Source of the DNA: Candidatus Ozemobacteraceae bacterium
GTDB taxonomy: Bacteria; Muiribacteriota; Ozemobacteria; Ozemobacterales; Ozemobacteraceae
Direction of reading: 5' to 3'
Assembly: GCA_035373905.1 (NCBI GenBank)
Contig: DAOSOK010000009.1
Location: forward strand, 44,925 to 108,924
DNA length: 64,000 bases
The position numbers were made by a program, and so were the translations under genes. Below, piece by piece: positions 6,484 through 33,408 of this stretch (position 1 is the first letter of the stretch; each line of letters starts with the position of its first letter). Under the pieces are notes generated by a model. That model ran no database searches. It worked only from the letters and a program-made list of their open reading frames with translations, and was not told the DNA's origin.

Positions 6484-8169
6484 ATGCATCGCCACGAGCC
6501 CCGGGAGCTTCGTCGTTCCTCCCCGAATCACCCGTTTTCATTCCGCGGATATGCGCTGATCCTGCTTTTGGCAGGATTCCTGACGGCGCCGTTTTCCGCA
6601 TCCGCCGCTCCTGTCAGGCTCGTCATTCTCCACACCGGCGACATCCACGGCCACATGTCGCCTCAGCCTGACCCGACGACGGCGAGCGAACCCAAGCCTC
6701 TCGTCGGCGGGTACGCGGCGCTCGCGACCGTCGTCGACCAGGAACGCCTTGCCGCGCTGAAATCCGGTGGTATAGCATTATATATGGATGGCGGCGATTC
6801 GTTCCAGGGCACCCCCGTCGTCGACGAGACCAAGGGAATGTGCATGATCGCCGCGAAGAACCTCCTCAGAACCTTCGCCGTCACGATCGGAAACCACGAT
6901 TTCGATTACGGGGTCGCGGGGCTCGCTTCAGCGGCGGCGGCGGCTCGATACCCCATGCTCGCCTGCAACGTGTTCGACACGAAAACCGGTCGGCTTCTTC
7001 CCTTCCTGAAGCCCTACGTCAGGCTTTCCCTCAAGGGAATCGACGTCGCTTTCATCGGCCTTCTCTCCCCGGACACCGCGCGCATTTCCCTCGCGGAAAA
7101 CGTCGAAGGGGTCGATTTTCGCGATCCGGTACCGATTCTCTCCGAACTCATTCCGCGACTTCGAAGGCAGGGGGTCGATTTCGTCGTTCTTCTCTCGCAT
7201 GTAGGACTGGAAGACGACAAGAAGCTCGCAGACGCCGTTCCGGGCATCGACCTCATTCTCGGAAGTCACAGTCACACCCCGATGACCGAGCCCTTCTTCA
7301 GTGAGCAACGGCTTGTCCCGATCATCCACAACGCCTTCGACAACCGCGTCGTCGGGAAAGTCACGCTTGACCTGGAGCCGTGGCGAACGGTCATCCAGTA
7401 TGAGCCGATTTCGATGTATATCGCATCCTATCCTGAAAATTCGGCGATGAAGCGTCTCGTCGCCGGGTATCAGGATGAAATCGATGCAAAGATGAGCGCC
7501 TTCGTGGGCACGTCTTCCGTCGACCTGATACGCGGAATCATCGGCGGGGACTCTCCCGAAGGGTCTTTTATATCAGACGCTATACGTCAGATCGCCGGCG
7601 CCGATTTCGCCTTCACCAATATCGGCGGAGTGCGCTACCCGGTCTGGAAGGGCCCCGTGACGAAGAATGATCTGTTCCTGCTGCAACCGTTCCTGAACTA
7701 TGTCGATGTCATCACCATGACCGGCGAGCAGATCGTCGAGTTGATGGAAAAATCACTCTCTGCGGGATTTTCACCGGTTACCGATGCGGACAACCAGTTC
7801 GCAATGGAGAATTTCAAACTGCGCGCGAGCGGCATGATACGGGAATTTCAGGGGGAATACGGGTATCTGATTCCTTCGAATCTCAAAGTCACTTTCGATC
7901 CACATCGCCCCCCGATGAAACGCATCGTCGAGATCACCGACGACAGCGGCGGAAAGCTCGACCCGAAGCGCCGTTACAAGGTCGCGTTGAACTCGTATAT
8001 GAGCACGGGCGGCGATGGATACACGTATCTGAAGTCGATGAAACGCACCACCACGGGCATTCTTGTCCGGGACGCCATCGAGCGGTATATCGAATCCTCT
8101 GGTGGAATCAGCGTCCTCCCGCCCGTGCGCATGAACAACACGGCGCTCACCGTCGAGCCGATTCAATAA
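6484..8169 (+). CDS. Secreted bifunctional 5'-nucleotidase / UDP-sugar hydrolase (calcineurin-like metallophosphoesterase plus 5'-NT C-domain)
   Basis: HTGDIHG, DGGDSFQG, IGNHDFDYG, LSHVG, GSHSH motifs; TNIGGVR and YMSTGGDGY in the C-domain. Confidence 0.9.
   Translation: MHRHEPRELRRSSPNHPFSFRGYALILLLAGFLTAPFSASAAPVRLVILHTGDIHGHMSPQPDPTTASEPKPLVGGYAALATVVDQERLAALKSGGIALYMDGGDSFQGTPVVDETKGMCMIAAKNLLRTFAVTIGNHDFDYGVAGLASAAAAARYPMLACNVFDTKTGRLLPFLKPYVRLSLKGIDVAFIGLLSPDTARISLAENVEGVDFRDPVPILSELIPRLRRQGVDFVVLLSHVGLEDDKKLADAVPGIDLILGSHSHTPMTEPFFSEQRLVPIIHNAFDNRVVGKVTLDLEPWRTVIQYEPISMYIASYPENSAMKRLVAGYQDEIDAKMSAFVGTSSVDLIRGIIGGDSPEGSFISDAIRQIAGADFAFTNIGGVRYPVWKGPVTKNDLFLLQPFLNYVDVITMTGEQIVELMEKSLSAGFSPVTDADNQFAMENFKLRASGMIREFQGEYGYLIPSNLKVTFDPHRPPMKRIVEITDDSGGKLDPKRRYKVALNSYMSTGGDGYTYLKSMKRTTTGILVRDAIERYIESSGGISVLPPVRMNNTALTVEPIQ
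7569..7584. repeat. TATA-N8-TATA spaced palindrome (perfect), inside the nucleotidase gene
   Basis: TATA TCAGACGC TATA; codons TTT ATA TCA GAC GCT ATA. Confidence 0.8.
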
Positions 8170-10165: not shown

Positions 10166-11530
10166 TCAGATCGCGATCTCGATCGTGAACACCGTGCCGC
10201 CGAGGGACAGCTTGTCGCCTGACCGGACTCCGGATACGGCTTTTACGGGAATGCCGTTGATTTCCGTAACGTTCGACGTCGTCTGCGGCACCGCGGCGAA
10301 CCCGTCCCCATCACGCCTGATAAGGAGATGCCGGCGGCTCACCTCCGCCGCGGTCATCGAAATATTGCACTCTTTCGCACGGCCGATCAGCACCTCCACG
10401 CCGCGCCCCTCGAATATCCTTCCGTTCTCATCCGTGAGTTTCACGATGATGGAGGCCGACGCAGGCACCGCTTCGCTCTGCCGCAAAAATCCGCTTCTGG
10501 AAATCGTCTTGTCCGAGGAGCCGGCCTTCTCGAGCGGTTGCGGCGCGCCCGGCATGCCAACCGTCGCATCGACAGCCTGGATGTTCCCCGAGACGCCGCT
10601 CCGGGCAACCGTCTTTTTCGATGTGTCGAAGGCTTCGGCCGGCTCTTCTTGCCTCACATCGACAACAGGCATCTCGGCGGTTTCGCCGGGTTCTTCCGCC
10701 GCCGGCTTCGGTGGTTCATCAGCCCGCTGAACGACCTCAGAAGAACCGGGAGGAGTTTTGGGTCCCCCCGCCGGTATCGCAACCGGTTCCTTCGGAACGT
10801 CGTTCGGTTCGGGTTTCGGCACGGAAACCGGCATTTCGAGCGTTCGCTCGGCTCGAGGCCCCTGATTCTGCCGATCGGCGGGCCCGGGAGAAGCCGTCAC
10901 AACGGGCATCGCCTGCGTCGAATCGGCGGCAGGGGGCACGTCCTGAGGAGGCGTCGCCGATAGATCGGAAAAAAACTGCTCGCGAGCCTTCTGGAGTTCC
11001 TCGAAATTCAGAAACAGTGATCGCGTCGACATGAGACCAGGATTCTTCTTCTGGTAACGCCAGACGGCCCATGCGACGATCAGCAGAAGAATGCCGCCGA
11101 CCAGGACGTGCAGGTGATACTGCTTCTCTTCCGCTTTCGCGACGAACGCAACATGGAGTGTTGCTCCTCCCGTCGCGGCCTGTGCCAGTTTGAAATCCGC
11201 AACCGACGCATTCGGGAACGGGAGAAATTTGACCCGATATTTCCCTCCCTTCCCGTTATCCGATGCGATTTCAAGCATCGAGTCGCCCGACAGCTGAACT
11301 TCCGGCGTCGGGGCAACGAGCCCCATGAACTGCACCGCCGCGGGATCGAACGTCAACCGCCAGGCGGGGCCGCTTCCGGGGGGGACAGCGACATCGACGA
11401 CGAAGAGCGCGCCGGGATCCGACTCGTCGGGCCCGGACAAGGTCTGCGCCACGACGCACGGACTCGCCGCCGCAAAACAAATTATAACTAACAGTATATT
11501 CAACACTCGCCTTGTCATCGAAGCGTACAT
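10166..11530 (-). CDS. Bitopic membrane protein with cytoplasmic C-terminal FHA domain
   Basis: Signal peptide, small extracellular beta domain, TM (VLVGGILLLIVAWAVW), Pro/Glu-rich linker, FHA motifs LIGR...VSRRH...NVTEING. Confidence 0.8.
   Translation of the reverse strand: MYASMTRRVLNILLVIICFAAASPCVVAQTLSGPDESDPGALFVVDVAVPPGSGPAWRLTFDPAAVQFMGLVAPTPEVQLSGDSMLEIASDNGKGGKYRVKFLPFPNASVADFKLAQAATGGATLHVAFVAKAEEKQYHLHVLVGGILLLIVAWAVWRYQKKNPGLMSTRSLFLNFEELQKAREQFFSDLSATPPQDVPPAADSTQAMPVVTASPGPADRQNQGPRAERTLEMPVSVPKPEPNDVPKEPVAIPAGGPKTPPGSSEVVQRADEPPKPAAEEPGETAEMPVVDVRQEEPAEAFDTSKKTVARSGVSGNIQAVDATVGMPGAPQPLEKAGSSDKTISRSGFLRQSEAVPASASIIVKLTDENGRIFEGRGVEVLIGRAKECNISMTAAEVSRRHLLIRRDGDGFAAVPQTTSNVTEINGIPVKAVSGVRSGDKLSLGGTVFTIEIAI
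11483..11498. repeat. TATA-N8-TATA spaced palindrome (perfect), in the signal-peptide coding region of the FHA gene
   Basis: TATA ACTAACAG TATA. Confidence 0.8.
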
Positions 11531-11575: not shown

Positions 11576-14500
11576 CTACATTCCAGGCTGCCATCCCGGG
11601 AACCATTCGATCAGTTCCTGAACGCTCGCCTTGTGGCTGCGCCTGCCGCCGAATATACTCTTGATGAAGTTCCGCTTTCCGCGTTTTTTTGCCTTGGATT
11701 CCAGGGCTTTCGCCATAAGTTCCGGCCGATCCCAGGTGCCGCTGACCGTCAGGTCGAGATACGGCAGACCGGTTGCTTTGTCCTGGAGCACGCGGGTCAT
11801 GGAGCCCATTTTCCGACCGAGTTTCGTGCGACGGAGGGGCTGCGGGTTGAAGACGATCTTGCCGGCGAGTTGGAGCTTATACGGATCGAAGGCGCTGTCG
11901 CTGATCTCGAGGCGCATCTCGGGTCCGGCGAAGAGCGCATCGGCAACACGCACCCGGCCTCGCTCCATCGTGTCGCCCTCACTGCTGACGTAAAGATTCA
12001 GCCTGCTCTCGGTGAACTCGGGCTTTTCGAGAAATTCCAGGCCAATATGCGAGACCATTTCGGGATCGAGCGGCATCTGTTCGATGACGAGGCCCTTCAG
12101 GCGCAACTGAAACACTGCGTCGCGAGCACCGCCGGCCGTCTGCTCGGCCGTGAACTCGCCGCCCAGAATCCCCTTCAGGCCGAAGCCGCTTCCGCCCGCG
12201 ATCCCGCCGCCGAGCGTTCCAAAATCGACGCCATCGATGCTTCCGGCGAGCTTGAAATTCGCCGTTTTCCCGGGCATCAGCCTGCCGGAGGCGGACGACA
12301 GGCGCACACGCCCCTTCATCACGCCAAGATCGCACTTCGAAGCGACCGCGATTCCCGTGCCGAGATCGTAGTTCAGCGCCACGGCACCGGGGCCGATCGG
12401 AACGGTCCAGGATCGCCCCTCGCTCGTGTAGCGGATGTCCACGGATTCTGTCTTCACGTCGACGTCGAATTTCGGCGCATCGAGCGTGCCTCCGAGATTG
12501 ACCGTGCCGCTGAACGCTCCCTCTTTCGGGAAGGACACCGTCGACAGCTTCAGGCCGGACAGCATGGCCAGCAGGTCGGACGGATATGCCCTCTCGACGA
12601 CGCCCTCCATCGTCAGTTTCGCGCTCTTCTGGGGATCGACCACCTGGCCTTTCGAAATCGAGATGAGGGAACGGCCGAACGCGGCCTTCACGTTGCGCCA
12701 CTCGACGACCGGCTCCGGACGTCCCTTCCTTCGCGTCAGGAGAATCGTCGCATCGAGCGCGCTGACCGGCTCGGGAATGCCGGTCCATCTGAAACCGCCT
12801 CCCTCGATCCTGACCTCGCCCTCGCCGCCGTACCGATTTCGCCCTCCGCTCAGGTTCAGCTTCCCGCCGATTTTTCCGGTCACGTTCGTCAGTTTTCCGG
12901 CGACGCCGGCCGGAAGGAAGCCGCCGTTCAGGATATCCATGAGCCGCGCGGCATCACCTTCTGTCAGAGAGGCCGTCAAATCGTCGATCATCGGCACGAG
13001 CCGCTTTCCATCGCGTTCCAGAGACGCCCTTCCGGACAATTCGAGCGCTCCGCCGACGGCCCGGGCCTTCCCGTTCGTGATCGCGCCGGCGAATCTTCCG
13101 GGCGCCGTCTGAGCGAACTCCAGATGAGCGGAAATGCCGCTCACGTCTACGGGCAAAATCTTGCCGGCCCCGATCTGCAGCGGGATCCGAAGATCGAGAC
13201 CGTCGACGTCGGCGGCGGCTTTCGCCGTAAGCGCCTCGAACGTTCCCGACGCGACAAAATCGACGGTAACCGGGCCATCGACGGCAAACGGCAGGTTGAA
13301 CTTTCCGATCCGGGCGACTTCGCCCATCAGCGTCTGCAGGCGCCTGCTCCCCCCCTTCATTCTGAGATTCCTGATGCGTCGCGAGGAAGGTTCTATCGCC
13401 GCCTCGAGGTCGAGGATCGTATCGAACACTCTGGTGTTCCCGTTCAATTTCAGCGTCTGGGCCCTGGCTCCCCTGGGTCGTCCCCAGGTCAGACGGCTGT
13501 GCAGGCCGTCCAGAACGAAATCGACGCCTCCGGTCGAGATTTTCGCATTTTTTGTGGAAACGTCGCCTCGATATTCCCCGTCCTCGCCCATGTTCAGCGC
13601 CAGGTCGAACGGCATGGCTGCTGAAACGCCGCCGGCTTTCACGTCCAGCCGCGGACAGGAGATCGACCCGGCAAGGGACGGGCGATTGAGCCGGCCATTG
13701 CCCTTGAGGTTCAGGGTGAACGCGCCCCCGATCACGATCCCGAGCTTTTTCACCGCCGCATCGACGTCGGGGTGTTCGCGCAAGGCAGTCAGGAGCGGGC
13801 CGAAGTCGTCGCCTCTCCATACGATCGCCAGATCGTCGATCTTCGGTTCGGCGAGATTCATCACGGCTCGCGCAGTCCCGGGGAAGCCGAACAGTTTCAG
13901 CGTCGCATCGGCCGCGAGTCGCGAGGGCCTGCCCCGCGATCGGTCGAGGGGTTCATCGGTCTCGAGCCTGAGTTCGACGTCGTCGAGCCACCAGGATTTC
14001 TTCGCGCGCCGAAGGCGGAACTTCTTTATATGCATAGATATATTCTGGGTGCCCGTCGCCGACGTGAGATGGGCCTCGAGGACCTTGTCGCCCTCGACGT
14101 CGAGGGAATCGAACCGTGGAGTTCCCTTCAGGCCGAGACTGTTCCAGAATTTACCGCCAGAGATGACGAACGGCTTCCCTCCGTCGAGCCGTGAAACGAC
14201 GGCGATTGTATACGAATCGATTTTTTTCCCCCCCGCCTGAACGGCGATGCGCCCGGACGACTCGGTAACGAGCGAGTCAATGCTCGCGGAAACGCTGGCA
14301 AGGTCGATCGTCCCTCTCGAGAGCATCAGGACACCACCAAGGCGGAGCCTGTCTTCGGGATGTTCCCGGCTGACGAGGCAGGCACCGCTGAGATCGACGA
14401 CAGCGCGCCCCTGGTCGATACGCTCGGGGGCGGGCAGTTCGGCCTCGATCCGAAGAGGGCCCACCAGATCGACGCGGGAAAAGTATTCCGACAGTTTTCC

Positions 14501-16126
14501 GGCAGCGGTCCGGGGAAGCAGCTTGAGAGGGACGATATCCCACAGGCTTCCGCCCTCTCTGATGCCAGCATCGAGCCTCACATCGCCGTAGGCGATCATG
14601 CCGCGCTCGCGAAGCCGCTCGAGGCGAATGCCAGCATGGCCAGCGTTCCGACTGACACGCGCCTGGAGGGTGGTCCGCATCTCGCTCTCGGATTTCCATC
14701 GTCCCTCGATCGTCATCCGCTCTCCGCCGAGATCCGAAGCAAAGCTGGCGACGGCGTTTCCGGGGGGGGTAAAGTCGATGCCGCCGACGTGCGATGTCGG
14801 CATGCTCGCGATGAAGCCGTCGCAGCGCGTGATGAGCGCCTGACGGTTTTGAAGACGCGCATTGACGTTCAACCGCTCGAGGGGAACAATCCCTGGAAGC
14901 AGGAGATCGAAGCTCGCGACGCCGATTTCAATGCAGGACTCGACGAGCGGCGCGCCTTCCGTCGACGACGCCATCATCGTCACCGCGCCGCCGATCTTCG
15001 CCCCTTCCGGCAGGAGGGCTTGAAGCGGGGACAGGTCACCGAAATCGAGGACGCCGGAAAGACCCCGCACGCGCTCAATGAAAGTTTCCCCAGCCTTCGC
15101 GACGATGAATCGCACATTCATCCGCTCTTTCTTTCTCCGATCGAACAAACTTACGAAGCGCCCCCGCTCTCCGATGTTTCTGATCAGGAGATCGACTCCC
15201 TGCTTCAGGACATCCATGGATGCGGTGACATCGCCGGAGGCGCGCGTGCGGCTGACCTGCATCGTCAGCCAGGCGGGGTCATCGGCGGTCGACAGCCGAA
15301 GCACGTGGGAAATGAAGTCGGGATGGGGATATTTTCGCAGCAGGAGATTCACGCCCGCGATCTGGAGATTCCCGGGCGGTATCCGCAGAAGCTTCACCAG
15401 CGTCTGGTCCGGGAACAGGTCGCGCGGCTTGGGGATCAGGAGGCTGACGTTTTTCAGCTCGATATGTTGAAGATACCTGTCGGCAATCTGCTCCGTGAGA
15501 TCCTCTTCACTCGCCGTTTCTGATCCGGTTGCCGTACCGGGCTCCGGCGGAAGGGCGGCCGCAGTCGCCACGACCGGCGGTTCTTTCTGGGGGCGGGGAG
15601 CTGAAAAGTCCCAGTTGGCCCTCCCCTCGCCGTCACGGGCAAGGACGATGGACGGATCTGTCACGATGAGCCTCTCGAGAACGATGCGCCCGAGGAAGAC
15701 ATCCCAAAGCGAGTACCGGAGAGTGATCCGCGGGATCGTGAGGAGCAGGCCCCCGGCTTTGACATGAGGATTCTGAACGACGAGATCCTGGATCTCGATG
15801 CCAGAAATGAGGTCGCCGGAAATTCTCCTGACGGTGAACGGCGCCTTGTCCCGGGCGAGCTCCATCAGGCCCTGTTTGACATGCCCCTCGATCACGTTGC
15901 TGTTGAGGCGGAAGAAGTTGAAGATGAAAATGCCGGCCAGCGTCGCCAGCACGAAAGCGCAGAACATCAGGAGCCGTCGCAGGATAACGCGGCGACGTCT
16001 GACCTGAATATGCCCGGCCAACCGCTCGGCGCGCCGGCGTTCGAGCTCTTGCGCGATGTCGTCAAGTTGCGTTCGTTTCGGGTCTTCCATGGAGGGAATC
16101 CGTGGTTCGTCCTCTCGGGGCTGCAA
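11576..16126 (-). CDS. Large AsmA/TamB-like envelope bridge protein (about 1500 aa)
   Basis: N-terminal TM, then RRISGDLISGIEIQDLVV...IPRITLRYSLWDVFLGRIVLERLIVTDPSIVLARDGEGRANW (AsmA-like), beta-rich body, C-terminal LTVSGTWDRP. The start may be ATG 16090 (MEDPKR). Confidence 0.7.
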   Translation of the reverse strand: MQPREDEPRIPSMEDPKRTQLDDIAQELERRRAERLAGHIQVRRRRVILRRLLMFCAFVLATLAGIFIFNFFRLNSNVIEGHVKQGLMELARDKAPFTVRRISGDLISGIEIQDLVVQNPHVKAGGLLLTIPRITLRYSLWDVFLGRIVLERLIVTDPSIVLARDGEGRANWDFSAPRPQKEPPVVATAAALPPEPGTATGSETASEEDLTEQIADRYLQHIELKNVSLLIPKPRDLFPDQTLVKLLRIPPGNLQIAGVNLLLRKYPHPDFISHVLRLSTADDPAWLTMQVSRTRASGDVTASMDVLKQGVDLLIRNIGERGRFVSLFDRRKKERMNVRFIVAKAGETFIERVRGLSGVLDFGDLSPLQALLPEGAKIGGAVTMMASSTEGAPLVESCIEIGVASFDLLLPGIVPLERLNVNARLQNRQALITRCDGFIASMPTSHVGGIDFTPPGNAVASFASDLGGERMTIEGRWKSESEMRTTLQARVSRNAGHAGIRLERLRERGMIAYGDVRLDAGIREGGSLWDIVPLKLLPRTAAGKLSEYFSRVDLVGPLRIEAELPAPERIDQGRAVVDLSGACLVSREHPEDRLRLGGVLMLSRGTIDLASVSASIDSLVTESSGRIAVQAGGKKIDSYTIAVVSRLDGGKPFVISGGKFWNSLGLKGTPRFDSLDVEGDKVLEAHLTSATGTQNISMHIKKFRLRRAKKSWWLDDVELRLETDEPLDRSRGRPSRLAADATLKLFGFPGTARAVMNLAEPKIDDLAIVWRGDDFGPLLTALREHPDVDAAVKKLGIVIGGAFTLNLKGNGRLNRPSLAGSISCPRLDVKAGGVSAAMPFDLALNMGEDGEYRGDVSTKNAKISTGGVDFVLDGLHSRLTWGRPRGARAQTLKLNGNTRVFDTILDLEAAIEPSSRRIRNLRMKGGSRRLQTLMGEVARIGKFNLPFAVDGPVTVDFVASGTFEALTAKAAADVDGLDLRIPLQIGAGKILPVDVSGISAHLEFAQTAPGRFAGAITNGKARAVGGALELSGRASLERDGKRLVPMIDDLTASLTEGDAARLMDILNGGFLPAGVAGKLTNVTGKIGGKLNLSGGRNRYGGEGEVRIEGGGFRWTGIPEPVSALDATILLTRRKGRPEPVVEWRNVKAAFGRSLISISKGQVVDPQKSAKLTMEGVVERAYPSDLLAMLSGLKLSTVSFPKEGAFSGTVNLGGTLDAPKFDVDVKTESVDIRYTSEGRSWTVPIGPGAVALNYDLGTGIAVASKCDLGVMKGRVRLSSASGRLMPGKTANFKLAGSIDGVDFGTLGGGIAGGSGFGLKGILGGEFTAEQTAGGARDAVFQLRLKGLVIEQMPLDPEMVSHIGLEFLEKPEFTESRLNLYVSSEGDTMERGRVRVADALFAGPEMRLEISDSAFDPYKLQLAGKIVFNPQPLRRTKLGRKMGSMTRVLQDKATGLPYLDLTVSGTWDRPELMAKALESKAKKRGKRNFIKSIFGGRRSHKASVQELIEWFPGWQPGM
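14027..14042. repeat. TATA-N8-TATA spaced palindrome (perfect), inside the AsmA-like gene
   Basis: TATA TGCATAGA TATA; minus-strand codons AAT ATA TCT ATG CAT ATA. Confidence 0.8.
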
Positions 16127-16237: not shown

Positions 16238-19200
16238 ATGATCAAGCCCGACCAGATAATCGGAAGACACTACAGAATCATCGCTCAACTGGGCGTCGGC
16301 GGCATGGGGCAGGTGTACAAGGCCCTAGACGTCAATCTCGGTCGGGAAGTCGCCATCAAGTTTCTTCTCGAGGCTGACTCGAACGAGGAGATTCGCCAGC
16401 GGTTCATCAACGAAGGCCGCGTTCTCGCTACGATCAACCACCGCGCCGTCATCTCGGTATACGCCTCGGATATTGACGAAGGCCTGAACGTACCCTTCCT
16501 GGTCATGGAGTTCGTCGACGGAAAGCCGATCGACCGGTTTCGCGACCAGTATCTCGAGAACCAGACGCTCCTGTTCGAACATTTCGTCGAGCTTCTCGAC
16601 GGCATATCCGCCTGCCATCAGAAGGGTATTATACATAGAGATATAAAACCAGCAAATATCCTTGCGAACCGCGAAGGTCAGCTGAAGATCCTCGACTTCG
16701 GCATCGCCAAGACGGCGAAAAAGCAGACCAAGACGGGGGTCGCACTCGGCACGCCGCACTACATGGCACCCGAACAGTGTCTCGGAAAGGCCGACGTCAC
16801 CCACAAGGTCGATATCTACGCCATCGGCGTCATGCTCTGGGAATTCCTCACCGGCAAGCTTCCTTTCGACGCGGGTGATTCAGCCGCTGACCCGGCCCTC
16901 GCCATCGCGCTGATGCACCTGAACGAGCCTCCGCCCCTAGAAGTCTTCACGTCGAATCCCGCCATCAGCAGGTTCGCCGATCTTCTGGGCCGCATGCTTG
17001 CAAAAAAGCCGGATGACCGGCCCGAAGTGAGCGAGGTCATGGAGACGCTCCGCAAGGAGCTCGTCTGCACGATTCCGTCCGCTGCAACCGGGCCGATCCC
17101 CGCCGTCTCTTCCGCCGTCTCCGGCCGGAGAGGCGCGATCAGGCTCATCGGTGATATTTACCAGATCCAGCGCGAACTGGGAAGCGGGGGCATGGGAACG
17201 GTTTATCTCGCCCTCGACACGTCCCTGAACCGCCAGGTCGCAATCAAGCTCATGAACGAGTCGAACGCCCGGGACACCGCCCTGGTCGAACGGTTCATTC
17301 GCGAAGGTCAGTTGCTCGCCACGGTCGGCCATCCGAATATCATGAACATCTACGCGTCGGCGATCGACCCCGAATCGGGCCGGCCGTTCCTCGTGATGGA
17401 GTATATCGACGGCGTTTCTCTTGCATCGCTGAAGCGCAACCTTCTCAAGGACCGCCGGAACGTTCCCGCCCTCATGCTCCAGTTGTTCGAGGGAATCGCG
17501 GCCTGCCACGCCCACGGCATCATCCACCGCGATCTGAAGCCGTCGAACATCATGGTTACGCGATCCGGCATACTGAAAGTGCTCGATTTCGGCATCGCCA
17601 AGACCTCGTCGAATATCACGCAAATGGGCATCACGATGGGAACGCCCGAATACATGTCTCCCGAGCAATGCATGGGCGTCAGGGACCTCACGCCTGCATC
17701 CGACGTCTACACGATGGGCGTCATTTTCTGGGAACTCATCTACGGCGACACGCCCTTCAAACCCGACACCGCCGAGAACCCCGAGTTGTCGATCGCGATG
17801 AAGCACGTTCATGCGACTCTGCCGGCCGGCGTGCTGATTCCCGACGAGTCGTTTGCCCCCCTTCTCCCCCTCGTCAGGAAGATGCTCGACAAATCCCCCG
17901 CCGCACGGCCACGGCTCGACGAACTCATCCAGGCGCTCGATGCTTATGTCGAGGCGCATCTCAGCACGGGCCAGGCCCTGCCGGCGACGCGACGGAAATC
18001 CCGCAGCATGCGCGCAAGCGGCCTGCAGGAGCTCCTTTCGGGTGAGGCGGAGGCGTCGGCCGGCCCCTTCCTGAAACGCCGGTCCACCTGGCTTGGCGCC
18101 GGCGCGATCGCCGTCGCAGCCGCCCTCACCTACGCATTTTTCCTCGGCAAGCCCGACAACACAAAACTGCTGACCCTGCTCAAAGCCCAGCTCGAACAGC
18201 AACTCACCGCGGGCCAACTCCAGGAGGCAGTTCGAACTCTCGCCGATCTCGAGTCCGAACCCGGGGGCTCCGAAGCCGCCGCCCCCTTCCGGGGAAGATT
18301 GGCCGAACTGCTCTCCGCGAAAGCCCGGTCAAGCGCCTCGGCTGGCGATGCTTCACCCGCTCTGAGCCTCTACGATCTCGCTCGGCAGATCGACCCCGGA
18401 AATGCGACCGCGACCAGCGGTTTCGAAAGCGTCAAGGCGTCGATCGACGCATTGATCGCGGCCGAAGCGAACCGCGCGCGGCTCCTGAATCGGTCGCGGG
18501 AACTGTTGCCTCTCATCCTCCCGGGATCGGGAACGGAGGAACTGGCGGGAATCATCGGCGGGCTTCGTCAGGTGGGGCTGGCAACCGAAGCGGCATCGAT
18601 CGAGTCCGTTTGGATCGACACGTTCCTCGCCTCGGGCGATGCCGCCCTGGCAAGCGATCCGACCAGGGCCCTGGAGTATTTCGACGAGATACGGAAGCGG
18701 TTCTCCGAAACGAAAGGCATCGACGACCGGATCGCCGCGGCCCGCAGGCGGCAGGAGGAGGAACAGGCGCGTCTTCGCAAGTCCCGTGAAACGGCCGATC
18801 TGATCGCCCAACTCGACGATGCGTCCAGGTCATTCACCCCCGAATCAGATCCCGCGGCCTTCATTGCGCTCTGCGACACGCTCGCGCAGATGGGCGAACG
18901 CGCAACCGCCGACACATACCGCCGCACGGCCGCGGCCCGGTTGTTCGAAACCGCGGAAACCCTCCTCGCCTCCGGGAAGAAAACCGAGGCCGTCCAGGCG
19001 ATGAAACGCGCTTCGGACATTTTTTCCGGCCTTCCCGGCCTCGGCGACCGCCTCAAGCAGACGGAGGATCTCATTGCGGCCGAGCGCGCAGCAGCCGAGC
19101 GGGCCGCGGCTCTCGGAAAACGTCTCTCCGATATATCGACAGAGATACAATCGCTCCGGCCTCCGGCTCCGGTCGATGAACTTCTGTCGAAGATCGGCGA

Positions 19201-21364
19201 AGTCGAAACGGCGTTCGCCGCAGCTTCCGCAGCCGCCGATCTCAGACGCGCAATTTTCGACAGGTATCTTTCCGCCGCTCGAAGCGTCCGGGACACCGAC
19301 CCCGGTACAGCGATGGCCGTTCTTGCGGAATGCGGGAAAATCGGGCTGAGCGCCGATCTCGTCGCCTCCGAAACGAGGTTCGCCAAACAGCTCATCGCCG
19401 CCCGCGACGCCGCGGATGCGGAACGCAAGCGCGCCGCCGAACTCGAAAGACAGGTCGGCATCCTGGCTGCCGAGATCCGGTCGGTCGCCCCTCCTGCCCC
19501 CGTCGCCCCCCTGATGATGCGGATCGGTGATGTGGAAACGGCGTTTGCCGCTGCCTCCGCCGCCGCGGAGCTGCGACAGGCCCTCTTCGACCGGTATCTG
19601 ACTGCGGCAAGAAGCCGGAAAGACACCGATCCCGAGTCCGCCCTGGCGATCCTGGCGGAGTGCAGGAACATCGGTATCCAGCCCGATACCGTCGCGTCCG
19701 AAGCGTCGGCGCTTTCGCAGACGGTCGCGACACGCGCGGCCCAGGCGGCGAAGCAGAAGCGCGTCTCGGATTTGTCAGCCGAACTTTCGAAGCTCGTGCA
19801 GGCCCCTTTCGCAAAGGGAGGAACGGCAATCCGAGCCCTTCTCGATGAACTGTCGGCACTTGGGGAAACCGAAAAAGCCGCAACGTTCCGTTCTGAAGCC
19901 CTCGAAACCGTCAGAACGCAGGCCGGCAAGGTCCGGACCGACGAGGACGCCCAGGAGATCCGGCGCGCCATGAAAGGGCTGATCGAGACCGGCAGTCCCG
20001 AAGAACTGGCTATATCTTCCGCTATAGAGACTTCCTTGAAGGCATGGCGGGACAAGCGGACGAAGGAAATCGAGACGGCCCTCGGGAAGGCGAAACCGGC
20101 CGAGAACACGAAACAGGTGGTCGAACTTCTTCGGGAACTGGCAGCGTTCGACGACCCTGAGCGTGTGAAATCCGCGGCCCAGGCTCTCAAGAAAAAATAT
20201 CTCGAAGCGGCTTCCCGCCTGAAACAGCCTGCCCAGGCAAAAAAACTCCTCTCCGCAGCCGCCGACATCCCCCAGCTCAAGGGCGACCCCGATCTCCGGT
20301 CGGCCATCACGGCCGCCGACGAAGCCATCGCCGAAGAGGCCAGGCTCGCGCATGCCGCCGAACTCGCCAGCCAGGCGGCCAAACCGCCCGTCGTCGTCAA
20401 ACCGCCGCCGGTCGAGATCGCTCCCCCCGTTGCGACGGTCGCGATACAACCTCCCGTTCAACCCCCACCGGTCGTCACTCCGCCGCCGGCGCCTGCCGAG
20501 CCGGTCGTCGGCCCCGGCGGATTCAAGACACTCGCGGAAGCCGTTGCAGCCGCAGAACCCGGTCAGAAGATCCGCGTCAAGCCTGGCACATACAAAGGAT
20601 CCTGCATCGTCGACAAGAACGTCACGATCCTGGGCGAAGGCAATCGCGCGTCCGTCGTTCTCGAGTCCGGCTCAGGCCCGGTTCTCACGTTGTCCGGCAA
20701 CGCCACCGTCTCCGGCCTCACGATCGGGTTTACCGGCTCTTCGCAGACGGATGCGGTCAAAATCACGGGCGGATCACCCACGGTGAAGAATTGCACCGTC
20801 ACCAGCACTGCCGCCGCTGCAGCGCCCTCCTGGTCGGCGTGCATCGCCGTCGATGGCGGCTCGCCGACGATCGTCGGGAACGTGACGAACGGCAGCAGGG
20901 GGATGGGCATCCTCGCCCGCGGAGGCCGGCCGCACATCTCGGGCAACACCTGTTCCGGCTGCGCGATTTACGGCGCCTGGTTCACCGACGGGGCCGGCGG
21001 AACCTTCGAAAACAACACGGTCACGCGGTCGGGCAAATCCGGCGTCGGCATCAAGAGCGGAGCATCCCCCGCCGTCCGGAACAATATAATATCGAACAAT
21101 ACAGAAAACGGCATCTTCGTATATCAAGGCGGGGCCGGCACCATTCAGGGGAACACCCTTTCCGACAACGGCTGGTCAGGCGTCCAGGTCGGCATGGCGG
21201 GAAAAGCCGAGCTCATCGCCGACAACCGTATCAGCGGCAATCGCAGGCACGGCATCCATGTAACGGGCAATGGCAGCACGGCAGTGATCGGAAGCAACAC
21301 CCTTTCAGGCAACGGGAAAGACGGCGAAAAAGCCGATGAAGGCGGGCAGATCTCCCGCCGGTAA
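16238..21364 (+). CDS. Membrane Hanks-type Ser/Thr kinase with two tandem kinase domains, extracellular helical repeats and a C-terminal right-handed beta-helix
   Basis: Two complete sets of GxGGMG / VAIK / HRDxKPxN / DFG / GTPxYMxPEQ; TM WLGAGAIAVAAALTYAFFLG; Pro-rich linker; PbH1-like repeats (ISGNTCSGC, FENNTV, VRNNIISNN, IQGNTLSDN). Confidence 0.9.
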   Translation: MIKPDQIIGRHYRIIAQLGVGGMGQVYKALDVNLGREVAIKFLLEADSNEEIRQRFINEGRVLATINHRAVISVYASDIDEGLNVPFLVMEFVDGKPIDRFRDQYLENQTLLFEHFVELLDGISACHQKGIIHRDIKPANILANREGQLKILDFGIAKTAKKQTKTGVALGTPHYMAPEQCLGKADVTHKVDIYAIGVMLWEFLTGKLPFDAGDSAADPALAIALMHLNEPPPLEVFTSNPAISRFADLLGRMLAKKPDDRPEVSEVMETLRKELVCTIPSAATGPIPAVSSAVSGRRGAIRLIGDIYQIQRELGSGGMGTVYLALDTSLNRQVAIKLMNESNARDTALVERFIREGQLLATVGHPNIMNIYASAIDPESGRPFLVMEYIDGVSLASLKRNLLKDRRNVPALMLQLFEGIAACHAHGIIHRDLKPSNIMVTRSGILKVLDFGIAKTSSNITQMGITMGTPEYMSPEQCMGVRDLTPASDVYTMGVIFWELIYGDTPFKPDTAENPELSIAMKHVHATLPAGVLIPDESFAPLLPLVRKMLDKSPAARPRLDELIQALDAYVEAHLSTGQALPATRRKSRSMRASGLQELLSGEAEASAGPFLKRRSTWLGAGAIAVAAALTYAFFLGKPDNTKLLTLLKAQLEQQLTAGQLQEAVRTLADLESEPGGSEAAAPFRGRLAELLSAKARSSASAGDASPALSLYDLARQIDPGNATATSGFESVKASIDALIAAEANRARLLNRSRELLPLILPGSGTEELAGIIGGLRQVGLATEAASIESVWIDTFLASGDAALASDPTRALEYFDEIRKRFSETKGIDDRIAAARRRQEEEQARLRKSRETADLIAQLDDASRSFTPESDPAAFIALCDTLAQMGERATADTYRRTAAARLFETAETLLASGKKTEAVQAMKRASDIFSGLPGLGDRLKQTEDLIAAERAAAERAAALGKRLSDISTEIQSLRPPAPVDELLSKIGEVETAFAAASAAADLRRAIFDRYLSAARSVRDTDPGTAMAVLAECGKIGLSADLVASETRFAKQLIAARDAADAERKRAAELERQVGILAAEIRSVAPPAPVAPLMMRIGDVETAFAAASAAAELRQALFDRYLTAARSRKDTDPESALAILAECRNIGIQPDTVASEASALSQTVATRAAQAAKQKRVSDLSAELSKLVQAPFAKGGTAIRALLDELSALGETEKAATFRSEALETVRTQAGKVRTDEDAQEIRRAMKGLIETGSPEELAISSAIETSLKAWRDKRTKEIETALGKAKPAENTKQVVELLRELAAFDDPERVKSAAQALKKKYLEAASRLKQPAQAKKLLSAAADIPQLKGDPDLRSAITAADEAIAEEARLAHAAELASQAAKPPVVVKPPPVEIAPPVATVAIQPPVQPPPVVTPPPAPAEPVVGPGGFKTLAEAVAAAEPGQKIRVKPGTYKGSCIVDKNVTILGEGNRASVVLESGSGPVLTLSGNATVSGLTIGFTGSSQTDAVKITGGSPTVKNCTVTSTAAAAAPSWSACIAVDGGSPTIVGNVTNGSRGMGILARGGRPHISGNTCSGCAIYGAWFTDGAGGTFENNTVTRSGKSGVGIKSGASPAVRNNIISNNTENGIFVYQGGAGTIQGNTLSDNGWSGVQVGMAGKAELIADNRISGNRRHGIHVTGNGSTAVIGSNTLSGNGKDGEKADEGGQISRR
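16630..16645. repeat. TATA-N8-TATA spaced palindrome (perfect), over the HRD codons of kinase domain 1
   Basis: TATA CATAGAGA TATA; codons ATT ATA CAT AGA GAT ATA AAA CCA GCA AAT. Confidence 0.85.
19090..19750 (+). repeat. Intragenic tandem duplication of about 110 codons (330 bp period)
   Basis: EVETAFAAASAAADLRRAIFDRYLSAARSVRDTDP versus DVETAFAAASAAAELRQALFDRYLTAARSRKDTDP; GAAACGGCGTT at 19205 and 19535. Confidence 0.85.
20011..20026. repeat. TATA-N8-TATA spaced palindrome (perfect), inside the kinase gene
   Basis: TATA TCTTCCGC TATA; codons GCT ATA TCT TCC GCT ATA. Confidence 0.8.
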
Positions 21365-22790: not shown

Positions 22791-22819
22791 TTGACAGGGA
22801 ATATCCGCGGGTGTATACA
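22791..22819 (+). promoter_or_regulatory. Sigma70 promoter of the ktr operon (TTGACA-17-TATACA)
   Basis: Consensus -35 at 22791, -10 at 22814, immediately before the riboswitch. Confidence 0.8.
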
Positions 22820-22821
22820 CG

Positions 22822-22955
22822 TCTCATGCTGAGTCCCGGCAATAGCCGGGAGCGGGGGACCCAATTCATCCGGGGTGAATCTCCTGACCGACAGGAGTAG
22901 GCGACCTCCCAACGCCGAACCCGACAGCTAACCTCGCAAGCAGATGGAAGGAGCA
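22822..22955 (+). ncRNA. Cyclic di-AMP (ydaO/yuaA) riboswitch
   Basis: Hallmark segments GCTGAGTCC..GGAGCGGGGGACCCA..GGGGTGAAT..GCCGAACCCGACAGCTAACCTCGCAAGC; directly upstream of K+ uptake genes, the known regulon of this class. Confidence 0.9.
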
Positions 22956-22998
22956 GTGCGGTTCGCCCGGTCTTCCGCCGGGCGGCCCGCGAGTGTTT

Positions 22999-24723
22999 AT
23001 GCTTGAGGTGCATCACCCCTCGCCGGCGACGGAAACCCGTCTCGACGAGTATTTCAGGGCCGCGCGAAGGACGATGAACGCCTTCGCCGTTCTCGGCCTC
23101 CTGTTTCTCGCCCTAGACCCAAGCTTCGGCCGAGCCACGTGGTATGCCGCTCTGAAAGCGTTCCTGGTTCTGCCGATCGACGCCCTTTTCGTCCTTCATC
23201 TCGGACTGGGTTATCTCCGATCGAAGTCGAGCCTCGCATTCATCAGGGATTTTCCCCTCGACATCATCTTCTTCCTTCCCCTATTCACCCTGACATTCGG
23301 CGGAGTCCACCCGTCCCATATCATCGCCGTGCGCCAGTTCGTGCATTATTTCAATCGCTATCTCGAACGCAGCATGCTCCAGAATCTGGCTCAGAATATC
23401 TCCGAACGCCCCGCGCGACTCATCGCGATGAGTTTTGCAGGAGTCATCCTGATCGGGACTTTTCTTCTGATTCTTCCCGTTTCCGTTTCGCCCGGATCCA
23501 AACCGTCGTTCCTGACGGCCTTGTTCACGGCGACGTCGGCCGTGTGCGTGACCGGCCTGAATGTCATCGACCCTTCGCACTACTTCACCCTGTTCGGCCA
23601 GATCGTGATCGTCTTCCTCATCCAGATCGGCGGTCTCGGCATCATGACCATGTCTGCCGGCGTCTCGCTTCTCATCGGCAAGCGGTTCGGAATGAGCCAG
23701 CGGTCGCTCATGCAGAACGTTCTCGACCAATCGGATCTCGCCGGTCTTCGAAATATACTGATTGACATATTGAGACTGACATTCATCGCCGAAGCCATGG
23801 GAGCGTTGATCCTGGGAGCCCGTTTTTACGTCGCAACCGACTGCTCGTTCAGGCGCGCGGCCTATCTCGGGGTCTTTCACGCGATATCGGCGTTCTGCAA
23901 CGCTGGCTTTTCCCTGTTTTCCGACAGCCTCTGCGGCTTCGCCTGGGATCCGATCATCTGCTTCACCGTGATGGGGCTCATCGTTTCGGGCGGCCTCGGA
24001 TTCGCCGTTCTCGGGGTCATCAACGGCTGGATTCTCGGAAGCCGGCGGGGCCCGGCCGACGTCCATACGCGCCTCGTCGTCCTGACGACTCTCGTCCTCA
24101 TCCTCGTCGGCGCCGTTTTCATCTACGTTCTCGAGTTCAACGGTCCAGCCATGCTGCATCTGAACGGGCCCGAGAAACTGATGGCCGCCCTCTTCCAAAG
24201 CGTCACCACGAGAACCGCCGGTTTCAACACGATCGATATCGCCCAGATGCGATCATCGAGCCTGTTCCTGATGATACTCTTCATGTTCATCGGCGCCTCC
24301 CCTTCGTCCACGGGCGGCGGCATCAAGACGACGACGCTCGCCGTCATGCTGCTCGCCCTCGACGCCCATATGCAGGGGAAGAACGAGGTGACGGCCTACG
24401 AGCGCGTGATTCCTGGCGACGTCGTGCTCAGGTCGTTCCTGATCACCGCGATCTCCGCGACCCTGGTTGCCTCGTACACGTTCCTGCTGACCCTGACGGA
24501 AAACCAGGACCTGATTCGGCTCATGTTCGAAACGGCTTCGGCCTTCGGAACGGTCGGCCTGTCGGCAAACCTGACGCCAGACCTTTCCCCGCTCGGGCAG
24601 TTCCTCATCATATCCCTGATGTTCATCGGCCGCATCGGCCCGCTGACGCTCGCGCTCTCCGTGAGAGCCCCCGTCAAGCGTGGCGACGTGCGGTATCCAA
24701 CGACCCGCGTTCTGGTCGGATAG
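22999..24723 (+). CDS. ktrB: KtrB/TrkH-family K+ uptake membrane subunit with an extra N-terminal TM region
   Basis: FTATSAVCVTGL, HAISAFCNAGFSL, FQSVTTRTAGFN, GASPSSTGGGIKTTT, FETASAFGTVGLS. Confidence 0.9.
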   Translation: MLEVHHPSPATETRLDEYFRAARRTMNAFAVLGLLFLALDPSFGRATWYAALKAFLVLPIDALFVLHLGLGYLRSKSSLAFIRDFPLDIIFFLPLFTLTFGGVHPSHIIAVRQFVHYFNRYLERSMLQNLAQNISERPARLIAMSFAGVILIGTFLLILPVSVSPGSKPSFLTALFTATSAVCVTGLNVIDPSHYFTLFGQIVIVFLIQIGGLGIMTMSAGVSLLIGKRFGMSQRSLMQNVLDQSDLAGLRNILIDILRLTFIAEAMGALILGARFYVATDCSFRRAAYLGVFHAISAFCNAGFSLFSDSLCGFAWDPIICFTVMGLIVSGGLGFAVLGVINGWILGSRRGPADVHTRLVVLTTLVLILVGAVFIYVLEFNGPAMLHLNGPEKLMAALFQSVTTRTAGFNTIDIAQMRSSSLFLMILFMFIGASPSSTGGGIKTTTLAVMLLALDAHMQGKNEVTAYERVIPGDVVLRSFLITAISATLVASYTFLLTLTENQDLIRLMFETASAFGTVGLSANLTPDLSPLGQFLIISLMFIGRIGPLTLALSVRAPVKRGDVRYPTTRVLVG

Positions 24724-31879: not shown

Positions 31880-33408
31880 GCGCCTCCCACCAGCGCCTCG
31901 AGATGCTCGGCATCTCGAAGCGCTTCGGTTCGACCCAGGCGAATTATCTCGTCAACCTCTCCGTCTCGGCGGGCGAGGTCGTCGGTCTGCTCGGCGAGAA
32001 CGGCGCCGGCAAGAGCACCCTGATGAACATCCTGTATGGCCTTCACCGGCCTGACGCGGGGGCCATCTTCCTCGACGGGGTCCAGATCGACGTCTCCTCT
32101 CCGGCCGCCGCGCGGGCGTTCGGCATCGGCATGGTCCATCAGCATTTCATGCTCGTCCAGAACCATACCGTCGCGGAAAACATCGCGCTCGCCCTCTCCG
32201 AAGCCCCCGCCTGGAACCCCGTTCCCTACGCCCGCGCGAAGATCGAGGAGTTCGGCGGCCGGTACGGCCTGAAGATCGATCCCGGCGCGAGGGTCAGCGA
32301 CCTTTCCGCCGGCGAGCAGCAGCGCGTCGAACTGCTCAAGGCGCTGATGAGCGGAGCGAAATGGCTCGTTCTCGACGAACCGACCTCGGTCCTCACCCCC
32401 CGCGAAGCAGACGAGCTGTTCGTGCTCCTGAAGCGGATGACGGGCGAAGGCCACGGGATCATCTTCATCAGCCACAAGCTCGACGAGGTGCTCGCGATCA
32501 CCGACCGGGTCGTCGTCCTGCGCCACGGCCGGCCGGCCGGCGAGTGCCGGACGAAAGACGCCGACCAGGCATCCCTCGCCCGGCTGATGATCGGCCGCCA
32601 GATCGACAAACCGTCGATCTCGAACCTGACGGTACCAGGAGAAGCGGTTCTCGACGTCAGGAGGCTGAGCGCGGCTGGCAGTCGCGGCCCCCTCACGGTA
32701 AACGATGCGAGCTTTGTCGTGCGCGGCGGCGAGATCATCGGCATCGCGGGGATATCAGGAAACGGCCAGCGCGAACTTCTCGAGACGATCGCCGGGATGA
32801 GGCCCGCGACCGCGGGAACGGTCAGCCTCTGCGGCGTCGATATCACCGACCACGATGTCCGCACCAGGACGGCCGCGGGCCTTGCGTTCGTTCCCGAAGA
32901 CCGGCTTCACACCGGGACGGTTCCCTCATTCAGTCTCACCGACAATGCGATTCTCCGGGACGCTCACCGGGATCTGTTTTCCCGGAACGGCTTCCTCGAT
33001 ACCGCCAAAGCTCGCGAGCGTTCGGAGAGGCTCATCTCCGAATACGAGGTGGCGGCTCCCGGCCCCGACACGCCGTTGCGAAACCTTTCGGGCGGCAATA
33101 TCCAGAAGTTCCTTCTCGGCCGCGAGTTGGACGCATCGCCCAAGCTCCTGCTGGCGGCACATCCGACGTACGGCGTGGATATCGCTGCGGCGGCCGTCAT
33201 CCATCGCGTCATACTCGAGCGAAAAGCCGCCGGCGCCGCGATCCTCCTCGTGTCCGAAGATCTCGACGAACTCCTGGCCCTCTCCGACAAAATCGGCGTG
33301 ATGTTCCGCGGTGAGCTTCGCGCCATGTTCCCCCGCGAGAAGGCAACGCGCGAGCGTATCGGCCTTCTCATGGGCGGCGCGCCTGCCACACCGGAGGAAG
33401 TGCCGTGA
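31876..33408 (+). CDS. ABC transporter ATP-binding protein (CUT2, two ATPase domains)
   Basis: GENGAGKST, LSAGEQQRVE, LSGGNIQK, VSEDLDE. Confidence 0.93.
   Translation: MSASHQRLEMLGISKRFGSTQANYLVNLSVSAGEVVGLLGENGAGKSTLMNILYGLHRPDAGAIFLDGVQIDVSSPAAARAFGIGMVHQHFMLVQNHTVAENIALALSEAPAWNPVPYARAKIEEFGGRYGLKIDPGARVSDLSAGEQQRVELLKALMSGAKWLVLDEPTSVLTPREADELFVLLKRMTGEGHGIIFISHKLDEVLAITDRVVVLRHGRPAGECRTKDADQASLARLMIGRQIDKPSISNLTVPGEAVLDVRRLSAAGSRGPLTVNDASFVVRGGEIIGIAGISGNGQRELLETIAGMRPATAGTVSLCGVDITDHDVRTRTAAGLAFVPEDRLHTGTVPSFSLTDNAILRDAHRDLFSRNGFLDTAKARERSERLISEYEVAAPGPDTPLRNLSGGNIQKFLLGRELDASPKLLLAAHPTYGVDIAAAAVIHRVILERKAAGAAILLVSEDLDELLALSDKIGVMFRGELRAMFPREKATRERIGLLMGGAPATPEEVP

Follow-up and report, generated by a model that had tools for sequence, protein, structure and literature searches.

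The window analysed here is a 64,000-nucleotide stretch of the genome of Candidatus Ozemobacteraceae bacterium (C9:44925-108924 of G000, an assembly of 4.98 Mb in 81 contigs with 61.5% GC). On its plus strand lies a gene for a receptor-type protein with two tandem Hanks kinase domains, and the segment encoding the catalytic loop of the first domain contains a short AT-rich islet, the element in question. Four copies of the motif represented by this islet were found in the kinase gene, at 16630, 19132, 20011, and 21088. The features of the gene are listed below in window coordinates, with scores in bits on a genome-wide motif model; G005 denotes a sister species and G002 a more distant species, and G003, G004, and G008, which appear later, are further members of the genus.

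16238-21364, plus strand: host gene, receptor-type protein of 1708 amino acids with two tandem Hanks kinase domains (open reading frame and translation)
16623-16652, no strand: AT islet (~30 bp) in the catalytic loop of kinase 1; core TATACATAGAGATATA at 16630-16645, 21.5 bits
17519-17548, plus strand: catalytic loop IIHRDLKPSN of kinase 2, without the motif (internal control); GC-ending codons ATC ATC CAC CGC GAT CTG AAG CCG TCG AAC
19132-19147, no strand: motif copy TATATCGACAGAGATA in copy 1 of a 110-residue repeat; 14.7 bits, one mismatch to the perfect pattern, kept in G005 (15.0 bits)
19457-19477, plus strand: matching place in repeat copy 2, GGC ATC CTG GCT GCC GAG ATC; no motif, amino acids unlike those of copy 1
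20011-20026, no strand: perfect TATA-N8-TATA TATATCTTCCGCTATA; the aligned place in G005 scores 21.5 bits
21088-21103, no strand: motif copy AATATCGAACAATACA close to the 3' end of the gene; 19.0 bits, kept in G005 (12.5 bits) and G002 (15.6 bits)

The residues IIHRDIKPAN of kinase 1 are encoded as ATT ATA CAT AGA GAT ATA AAA CCA GCA AAT at 16628-16657, and around the site 11 successive codons (GGT to AAT, 33 bp) have A or T at the end. A sequence-only reading of this stretch had set this loop against its GC-coded counterpart in kinase 2. Both sequences are as it had given them, and the position of the second is exact, while the kinase 1 codons begin one base later than reported. The same reading had treated the 110-residue repeat as a further control. 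Copy 1 does carry the motif and copy 2 does not, but the residues differ (DISTEI versus GILAAEI), so that the comparison is not purely synonymous and, in contrast to the kinase pair, the repeat pair is only partly valid as an internal control. The repeat itself is a tandem duplication of ~110 residues in the helical extracellular arm of the kinase (window 19118-19800: KRLSDISTEIQSLRPPAPV... / ERQVGILAAEIRSVAPPAPV...), and a paralogue of the kinase, 58% identical, is encoded at G000:C16:73301-75049 and found across the genus. The kinase gene is a passive carrier only, whose first domain happens to encode I-I-H-R-D-I-K, a run of residues that can be spelled as the motif.

A dyad-symmetric DNA motif across one genus

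The islet in kinase 1 is one conserved copy of a genus-wide, dyad-symmetric motif of double-stranded DNA. Across the whole genome TATA-N8-TATA occurs 395 times, as compared to 15 occurrences with N7, 24 with N9, and 5-26 at each of N16-N40; side peaks at N6 (103) and N10 (212) arise from ATATAT runs. The shorter ATA-N8-TAT was seen 1684 times versus 184.5 expected from 3-mer frequencies (9-fold). Autocorrelation of TATA displayed a 47-fold peak at 12 bp and a slight, 3-fold bump at 24 bp. As there is hardly any 24-bp repeat, the unit consists of two half-sites and is not an array; a third half-site or longer array was rejected on the same ground. Isolated pairs of TATA were in excess at the 12-bp distance only (39 versus ~2.5). 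An iterated, symmetrised weight matrix yielded the dyad-symmetric model WWn-tATAt-N6-aTATa-nWW (W, A or T), in which the most informative positions are A1 T2 A3 and T12 A13 T14, accompanied by AT-rich dinucleotides (WW) 10 bp off the dyad and a moderately AT-rich centre. The site thus comprises two half-sites of 4 bp, 12 bp apart, within an informative core of 22-24 bp and an AT-rich footprint of ~30 bp. Matches of at least 11 bits numbered 3480, as compared to 175 after the genome was shuffled. Given a wrong spacer, the matrix returned 1258-1660 matches, or ~2400 with the spacer off by two (a TA register shift). With matches at wrong spacers taken as background, ~2,000 copies are in excess, roughly one per 2.5 kb.

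Rare synonymous codons ending in A or T are the main means by which the motif is written into coding sequence; the choice of amino acids contributes in part. Genes were taken from a simple in-house caller (3423 genes, covering 86% of the genome), and codons were permuted within each gene, which preserves the protein and the codon usage of each gene. This synonymous shuffle reduced TATA-N8-TATA inside genes from 276 to 37.4 ± 6.3 and ATA-N8-TAT from 1224 to 284 ± 18, while control gaps barely changed; the 7.4-fold excess of the former over the shuffles is of the order that marks a highly iterated palindrome. The claim that protein sequence does not force the islets is therefore borne out, the amino-acid-preserving shuffles containing 7-fold fewer TATA-N8-TATA and 4-fold fewer ATA-N8-TAT, and the use of three frames, the enrichment of intergenic DNA, and the mostly GC-rich spelling of IIHRDIKP in orthologues outside the genus agree with it. 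Copies of ATA-N8-TAT lie within genes in 73% of cases (in three frames and on both strands) and between genes in 22%, with enrichment over in-phase control gaps of 5-fold in genes and 2.7-fold between them, and the motif is equally frequent on either strand relative to the gene. The shuffled N8 count (284) still exceeds that of shuffled controls (~198), and beside the core GC also dips at codon positions 1 and 2, which shows that the choice of amino acids has been moulded too. The codons recruited by the islet are rare ones, ATA serving 5.7% of isoleucines and AGA 4.9% of arginines.

Around motif copies genome-wide, GC at third codon positions (GC3) has a baseline of ~0.78 and drops to 0.25-0.55 within a footprint of ~29-30 bp, which starts 7 bp ahead of the first T and stops 6-7 bp beyond the last A; outside it, the baseline is regained abruptly. 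Intergenic copies are equally wide. The sequence-only reading had anticipated such a dip, together with a footprint of 30-40 bp extending beyond the eight motif bases. The profile is indeed not flat, and the measured width falls at the lower end of that range. When sites were oriented by the sense strand the profile remained a true dyad, and the intergenic profile was the same; AT content of the left and right flanks correlated at +0.09. A hidden asymmetric site is ruled out by this symmetric oriented profile and the positive flank correlation.

Several more conventional sources of the pattern were also rejected or found to lack support. Periodicity of amino acids (isoleucine or tyrosine four residues apart) does not account for it, given that protein-keeping shuffles contain 243 ATA-N9-ATA as compared to 1141 observed and that intergenic DNA is enriched too. 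At the kinase site no Rfam family was detected and the predicted RNA fold is unremarkable (z = -0.64). A sigma-70 promoter is not supported, as no -35/-10 pair is present at any of the four sites of the kinase gene, copies are not concentrated upstream of gene starts, and the information pattern differs from that of a TATAAT-like -10 element, in which A-11 and T-7 are the most strongly conserved positions. Mobile repeats (miniature inverted-repeat transposable elements or repetitive extragenic palindromes) would be expected to conserve sequence in spacer and flanks, which is not observed, and 73% of copies sit within genes without indels.

The taxonomic range of the motif was surveyed in 87 species-level genomes of Riflebacteria, comprising seven of the window's genus and 80 others (38 genera, 11 families). 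The ratio of N8 to the in-phase control N11 ranged over 4.4-6.5 (TATA) and 3.9-5.6 (ATAT) in all seven genomes of the genus. Among the other 80 it was ~1 where counts were large and scattered over 0.7-2.3 where counts were small, and sister genera of equal or higher GC had almost no copies at either N8 or N11. Enrichment is confined to the seven genomes of the genus, and the trait therefore arose on the branch leading to it. The kinase islet follows the same pattern, being kept at the same codons, at least as TAT-N9-TAT, in five of five orthologues within the genus, down to 75% protein identity, whereas orthologues in other genera encode the same residues mostly with GC codons and lack the islet. 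The islets did not come from recombination tracts of AT-rich donors, a source that had been named as possible, in view of the fixed spacing, the conserved residues at the kinase site, and the use of the same codons in five same-genus orthologues.

Motif copies are maintained by selection or an equivalent directional force. In an alignment with G005 (741 kb, 89% nucleotide identity), ATA-N8-TAT was retained at the aligned place in 172 of 223 cases (77%), as compared to 83 of 188 (44%) for the in-phase control gaps N5, N11, N14, and N17. Across the greater distance to G002 (524 kb, 78% identity) the corresponding values were 53/142 (0.37) and 21/125 (0.17), and for weight-matrix matches 0.49 versus ~0.31. 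Conservation at orthologous places, as known for highly iterated palindromes, is thus seen in both comparisons (0.77 versus 0.44 in G005; 0.37 versus 0.17 in G002).

Turnover between G000 and G005 is balanced, with 172 sites shared, 49 found only in G000, and 58 only in G005. Sites scored as lost in G005 still average 18.1 A/T in 30 positions, versus a background of 11.6; 44 of 50 remain AT-rich and six of 50 have 12 or fewer. As lost sites are mostly still AT-rich, islets erode and arise for the most part stepwise, base by base, and not as blocks, a description that fits only the minority of six. A whole-islet difference was observed at G000:C1:47354, where G000 has GATATACGAATGAATATATC and G005 has GATACACAAACGAGTAGATG, with six changes at 3-bp intervals, all from AT to GC. 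Where G002 also aligns, seven of eight G000-only sites are absent from it as well; these seven are probably recent gains, and the force still acts. Codons within islets encode less conserved residues than codons elsewhere (amino-acid identity 0.858 versus 0.910).

Along the chromosome, sites lie ~3 kb apart after merging of overlapping matches, and their spacing is more even than that of control patterns (coefficient of variation 0.90 versus 0.98-1.03). Neighbour distances below 500 bp make up 10.0%, versus a Poisson expectation of 15.3% (about -5.8 standard deviations), and controls lack this deficit. No clusters of sites, such as might lie near a candidate reader gene, were found, no 600-bp stretch holding four or more; nor was there any concentration at gene starts or ends relative to composition-matched controls. 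The ratio of motif to control was 1.67-2.97 in all 51 contigs of at least 30 kb, and the excess density was flat, at 3.3-3.8 per 10 kb, over quartiles of coding score, a proxy for expression. A match is carried by 125 of the 136 genes of at least 3 kb, and 13% of the 9127 places at which the core can be written synonymously are used, versus 3.2% for a control gap. Segments that do not align with G005 showed a ratio of 2.06 versus 2.32 for the rest (only 66 kb, of uncertain origin), and contigs with phage-like genes were also enriched (1.77). Dense in genes, present in both orientations, evenly spaced, and specific to one lineage, the copies are distributed in the manner of uptake sequences.

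Candidate readers and rival explanations

That sites are placed evenly and without regard to genes suggests a role in chromosome architecture or handling and not in regulation, and some protein probably reads the motif all along the chromosome. Dyad symmetry, half-sites about one helical turn apart, and strict spacing are the geometry of a site for a dimeric protein. The interpretation tentatively preferred has the motif bound by an abundant DNA-bending chromosome protein, either homodimeric or pseudo-dimeric. In the ancestor of this Ozemobacteraceae genus such a reader would have arisen or acquired a new specificity. One tATAt half-site would be read by each subunit, the half-site centres being 12 bp apart, and bending of the otherwise stiff GC-rich DNA round the protein, as with CRP, Fis, or IHF, would be made possible by the AT-rich centre and by the WW flanks, which lie 10 bp from the dyad. 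Distributed evenly and irrespective of genes, the sites would then serve the architecture or handling of the chromosome, such as compaction, anchoring of loops, or loading of another machine, and not the control of single genes.

Several results weigh against a bending protein of this kind. No reader was found among the proteins searched, which were only a small part of the proteome. None of 11 small basic or unannotated proteins is both common to the whole genus and restricted to it, and the genus has three HU/IHF genes, as do most of its sister genera. Beyond the core bases, islets show no added conservation at synonymous sites (0.768 identical codons versus 0.788 elsewhere), so that the wide AT footprint reflects a compositional preference and not base-specific contact. 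Finally, every distribution feature listed above also fits a DNA-uptake signal kept by molecular drive.

Among the proteins considered, the most suggestive candidate is a 203-residue protein encoded at G000:C3:66394-67005 (L219), possibly a nucleoid protein and to be taken only as a lead. It has a net charge of ~+29 and two winged-helix-like halves, with 72-97% identity within the genus and 33-48% identity in six of 12 sister genera; it is fast-evolving and belongs to no Pfam or NCBIfam family and has no solved relative. No proteins with repeated AT-hooks were detected. A small protein encoded at G000:C39:13922-14383, found family-wide with 46-89% identity, appears by eye to combine an Smr (MutS2-type nicking) domain with a winged-helix-like C-terminal tail. 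ComEC was rejected as a genus-specific factor, being present in 30 of 31 genomes sampled across the phylum. A search of the available literature returned nothing on the motif in Riflebacteria.

DNA methylases and Type I systems were considered in the same way. A Type I locus at G000:C41:~32700-37757 comprises hsdR, hsdM, and hsdS together with an ImmA/IrrE-like helix-turn-helix gene. Only one target-recognition domain can be read in its hsdS, which is then interrupted by an assembly gap (a run of N); should the gene really be half-size, a symmetric bipartite site would be predicted. This system was rejected as the reader, given its absence from G005 and G003, both fully enriched, and a recognition domain not common to other genus members. 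Specificity genes (HsdS) vary from genome to genome, G003 having no match at all, and no one HsdS recognition domain is thus shared by every genome that bears the motif. A 688-residue methylase (C39) is confined to G000, G005, and G008, an Eco57I-like protein of 1676 residues to G000 and G004, and a DUF1156 methylase-like protein is without close copies in genomes other than G000; all three were set aside as sporadic. The sole genus-wide DNA methylase is a PF01555 (N6/N4) protein of 406 residues (G000:C8:1671-2891, L220), present in seven of seven genus genomes at 89-99% identity. It was likewise rejected as family-wide, since 11 of 12 sister genera without the motif also encode it (67-74% identity). 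No nuclease partner is obvious in its neighbourhood, and it looks like an orphan housekeeping methylase of Ozemobacteraceae.

The main rival to the architectural protein, though rather unlikely in itself, is that the motif is a signal for DNA uptake or self-recognition, i.e., the preferred substrate of the transformation machinery of the genus and a palindromic, AT-only counterpart of the uptake signal sequences (USS) and DNA uptake sequences (DUS). Its copies would accumulate by biased uptake and recombination (molecular drive) and not through selection on single sites. At the pore, DNA that is otherwise stiff and GC-rich would kink or melt readily where an AT islet with its two TpA-rich half-sites occurs, and kinking at the uptake sequence has been proposed for Haemophilus (PMC3458573). 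Thousands of copies at kilobase spacing, mostly in genes and in all frames, with a core and AT flanks of ~30 bp, form a USS/DUS-like set, and the more-even-than-random spacing, the restriction to one lineage, and conservation between species with continuing gains (the seven of eight G000-only sites absent from G002) are consistent with it. So are the presence of ComEC and the placement of sites in less conserved protein segments (0.858 versus 0.910), which has been reported for USS and DUS (PMC2817400), and HIP1, a highly iterated palindrome of cyanobacteria, is now proposed as an enhancer of uptake or transformation (PMC13756078; bioRxiv 10.1101/2024.09.10.611283). In contrast, with ComEC in 30 of the 31 phylum genomes sampled, the machinery does not track the motif, and no genus-specific receptor was found. 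Known uptake sequences are asymmetric, with cores that are specific 9-12-mers and not 4+4 A/T bases, and genes without homologues in relatives lack USS (PMC2817400), whereas here the non-aligning segments, at only 66 kb, appear enriched (2.06 versus 2.32) and the contigs with phage-like genes are enriched too (1.77). The host is moreover uncultured. On this account the islets would be a new kind of uptake or self-recognition signal, a "kink site" made of A and T alone and symmetric about a dyad, by which the transformation machinery would know the DNA of its own genus and which molecular drive, not selection on each copy, would spread through genes; this is again rather unlikely. If it were true, such a signal would occur in a candidate phylum with no known uptake sequence, and since the trait is confined to one young genus, its receptor ought to be traceable within the small set of gene families that this branch gained or retargeted.

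Less probable is a link to methylation, in which ATA-N8-TAT would be the target of an adenine methyltransferase, in the shape expected of a half-size HsdS, with an epigenetic, replication, or repair role or a linked repair bias. The ATA-N8-TAT core is symmetric and bipartite, as are Type I targets of this kind, with halves of 3-4 bp and an unspecified spacer of 6-8 bp, and its 3-bp halves with an 8-bp gap are the geometry of a half-size HsdS homodimer. That geometry is said to have been described by Meister et al. in 1993 for the EcoDXXI Tn5 mutant. The single-domain hsdS of the G000 Type I locus and the genus-wide PF01555 methylase without an obvious nuclease partner would suit this explanation, and HIP1 offers a precedent with orphan methylases (PMC4390886). 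Against it stand the absence of the C41 system from fully enriched G005 and G003 and a recognition domain not common to the genus, the variability of HsdS genes and the sporadic occurrence of the other methylase-like genes, and the presence of the only genus-wide methylase in 11 of 12 motif-free sister genera. A methylase site also does not explain an AT-rich spacer and flanks; 6mA (N6-methyladenine) has no known mutational drive, and restriction targets are normally avoided, not enriched.

More doubtful again is a neutral origin, in which a lineage-specific bias of mutation or repair keeps making functionless copies. A genus-limited origin, a density uniform over contigs and gene classes, the balance of gains and losses (49 G000-only versus 58 G005-only), and the lack of added constraint at islet synonymous sites outside the core would all be expected. 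Sites are nonetheless kept in place 1.7-2.2 times more often than controls of the same composition, and the under-representation of close neighbours is not predicted by a local mutational process. The pattern also costs rare codons and shifts amino-acid choice, and a gapped A/T dyad is not the product of any known repair process; neutral replenishment of HIP1 has been rejected by the same argument (PMC5861425).

That the islets act intrinsically, without a dedicated protein, is very improbable. In such a scheme meltable or bendable 30-bp AT islets would be points of unwinding or relief in replication, transcription, or supercoiling, or internal promoters, and the AT-richness of the full 30 bp, the flexible TpA steps, and the regular kilobase-scale spacing accord with it; but melting or bending alone needs neither the exact 12-bp register nor dyad symmetry, and sister genera that are equally or more GC-rich do without the motif. 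Promoter activity is further disfavoured by base preferences unlike the -10 hexamer, the lack of -35/-10 pairs at the gene's four sites, and a distribution not concentrated upstream of genes. Scarcely credible, lastly, is a signal in translation or mRNA, with ribosomes pausing on ~10 rare codons, or RNases or RNA-binding proteins being drawn to an AU-rich patch: the islet does span ~10 codons and includes rare ones, and a ribosome covers ~30 nt, yet the motif is symmetric, equally frequent on both strands, present in all frames, and enriched with an identical profile between genes, and a fixed 12-bp register is meaningless for decoding.

Other copies and features in the window

Perfect TATA-N8-TATA occurs seven times in the window, as compared to 0.00 in 100 dinucleotide shuffles. 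The copies outside the kinase gene are the following.

7569-7584, no strand: perfect TATA-N8-TATA in the coding sequence (CDS) 6484-8169; present here, missing from G005
11483-11498, no strand: perfect TATA-N8-TATA in CDS 10166-11530; 22.2 bits
14027-14042, no strand: perfect TATA-N8-TATA in CDS 11576-16126 (minus strand); 18.5 bits
37232-37247, no strand: perfect TATA-N8-TATA in CDS 35642-37666; 20.2 bits
54876-54891, no strand: perfect TATA-N8-TATA with GC-rich spacer and flanks; <9 bits on the full model

The last of these may be a chance occurrence or a weak copy. One of the genome's three HU/IHF-family genes lies at 41623-41892 (plus strand), with a promoter-like AT stretch 5' and a clean hairpin terminator 3' of it. 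Canonical motif sites around this gene were rejected, the weak model matches there falling in AT-rich DNA of the usual promoter and terminator kind. At 22817-22958 (plus strand), just upstream of the gene at 22993-24723, lies a c-di-AMP riboswitch (RF00379, 93.7 bits).

Relation to known systems and significance

The phenomenon belongs with highly iterated palindromes and uptake sequences, and is set apart from both by its gapped A/T-only build, its 30-bp footprint, the lack of a co-distributed methylase, and its range of one genus in a candidate phylum. HIP1 (GCGATCGC) and the other highly iterated palindromes of cyanobacteria are likewise hyper-abundant lineage-wide and written via codon choice, and HIP1 is conserved within and between genes, has no tie to gene regulation, and is non-randomly spaced along the chromosome. 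Its function is debated between nucleoid structure and transformation (PMC5861425, PMC4390886, PMC13756078). HIP1, however, has its eight bases in one uninterrupted, GC-rich run, which includes methylase sites (GATC, CGATCG), and it extends phylum-wide. The motif described here, in contrast, is a dyad with a gap, built of A and T alone and set in a 30-bp AT footprint in the GC-rich genomes of one genus; it is neither a contiguous palindrome nor matched by any genus-specific or co-distributed orphan methylase.

USS of Pasteurellaceae and DUS of Neisseriaceae are similar in copy number, density, mostly genic location, even spacing, and restriction to a lineage, and USS also has a core with ~30-bp AT-rich flanks; sites of both lie at less conserved protein positions (PMC2817400, PMC3458573). 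They differ as asymmetric, specific 9-12-mers of demonstrably competent hosts that are absent from genes without homologues in related genomes, whereas the motif here is a 4+4 dyad for which non-aligning segments (66 kb) appear as enriched as the rest.

The architecture of the site is reminiscent of operators and nucleoid-protein sites. The operator of CRP is TGTGA-N6-TCACA and that of LexA is CTGT-N8-ACAG; these, and Fis/IHF-type sites, likewise pair short half-sites about a dyad at a distance of 11-12 bp, span ~22-24 bp, and have an AT-rich centre and flanks that favour bending. Such sites number tens to hundreds and lie mostly in promoters, as compared to thousands spread evenly through coding DNA here. 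Type I sites of half-size HsdS (e.g., TCA-N8-TGA) have symmetric 3-bp halves, an 8-bp unspecified spacer, and an adenine in each half, but they are not enriched in host genomes and have no preference in flank or spacer, and the Type I systems here vary within the genus. Chi and KOPS are also short, over-represented genome-wide, and read by a DNA-processing machine; they are asymmetric and oriented with replication, whereas the present motif is a perfect dyad without orientation.

Hyper-abundant palindromes such as HIP1 have been known for ~30 years with no agreed function. In the genus described here an A/T-only motif is written into genomes such as this one at 61.5% GC, where each copy stands out as a 30-bp islet and its cost in rare codons and amino acids is measurable. 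In these genomes, gene finders and inference from codons have to reckon with a motif that skews codon usage and local GC3, and the same motif offers a sequence signature for binning DNA of the genus from metagenomes. The trait switches on sharply at the base of the genus (seven of seven genomes versus none of 80 others in the phylum), and the responsible protein should therefore be among the few genes gained or retargeted on one branch.

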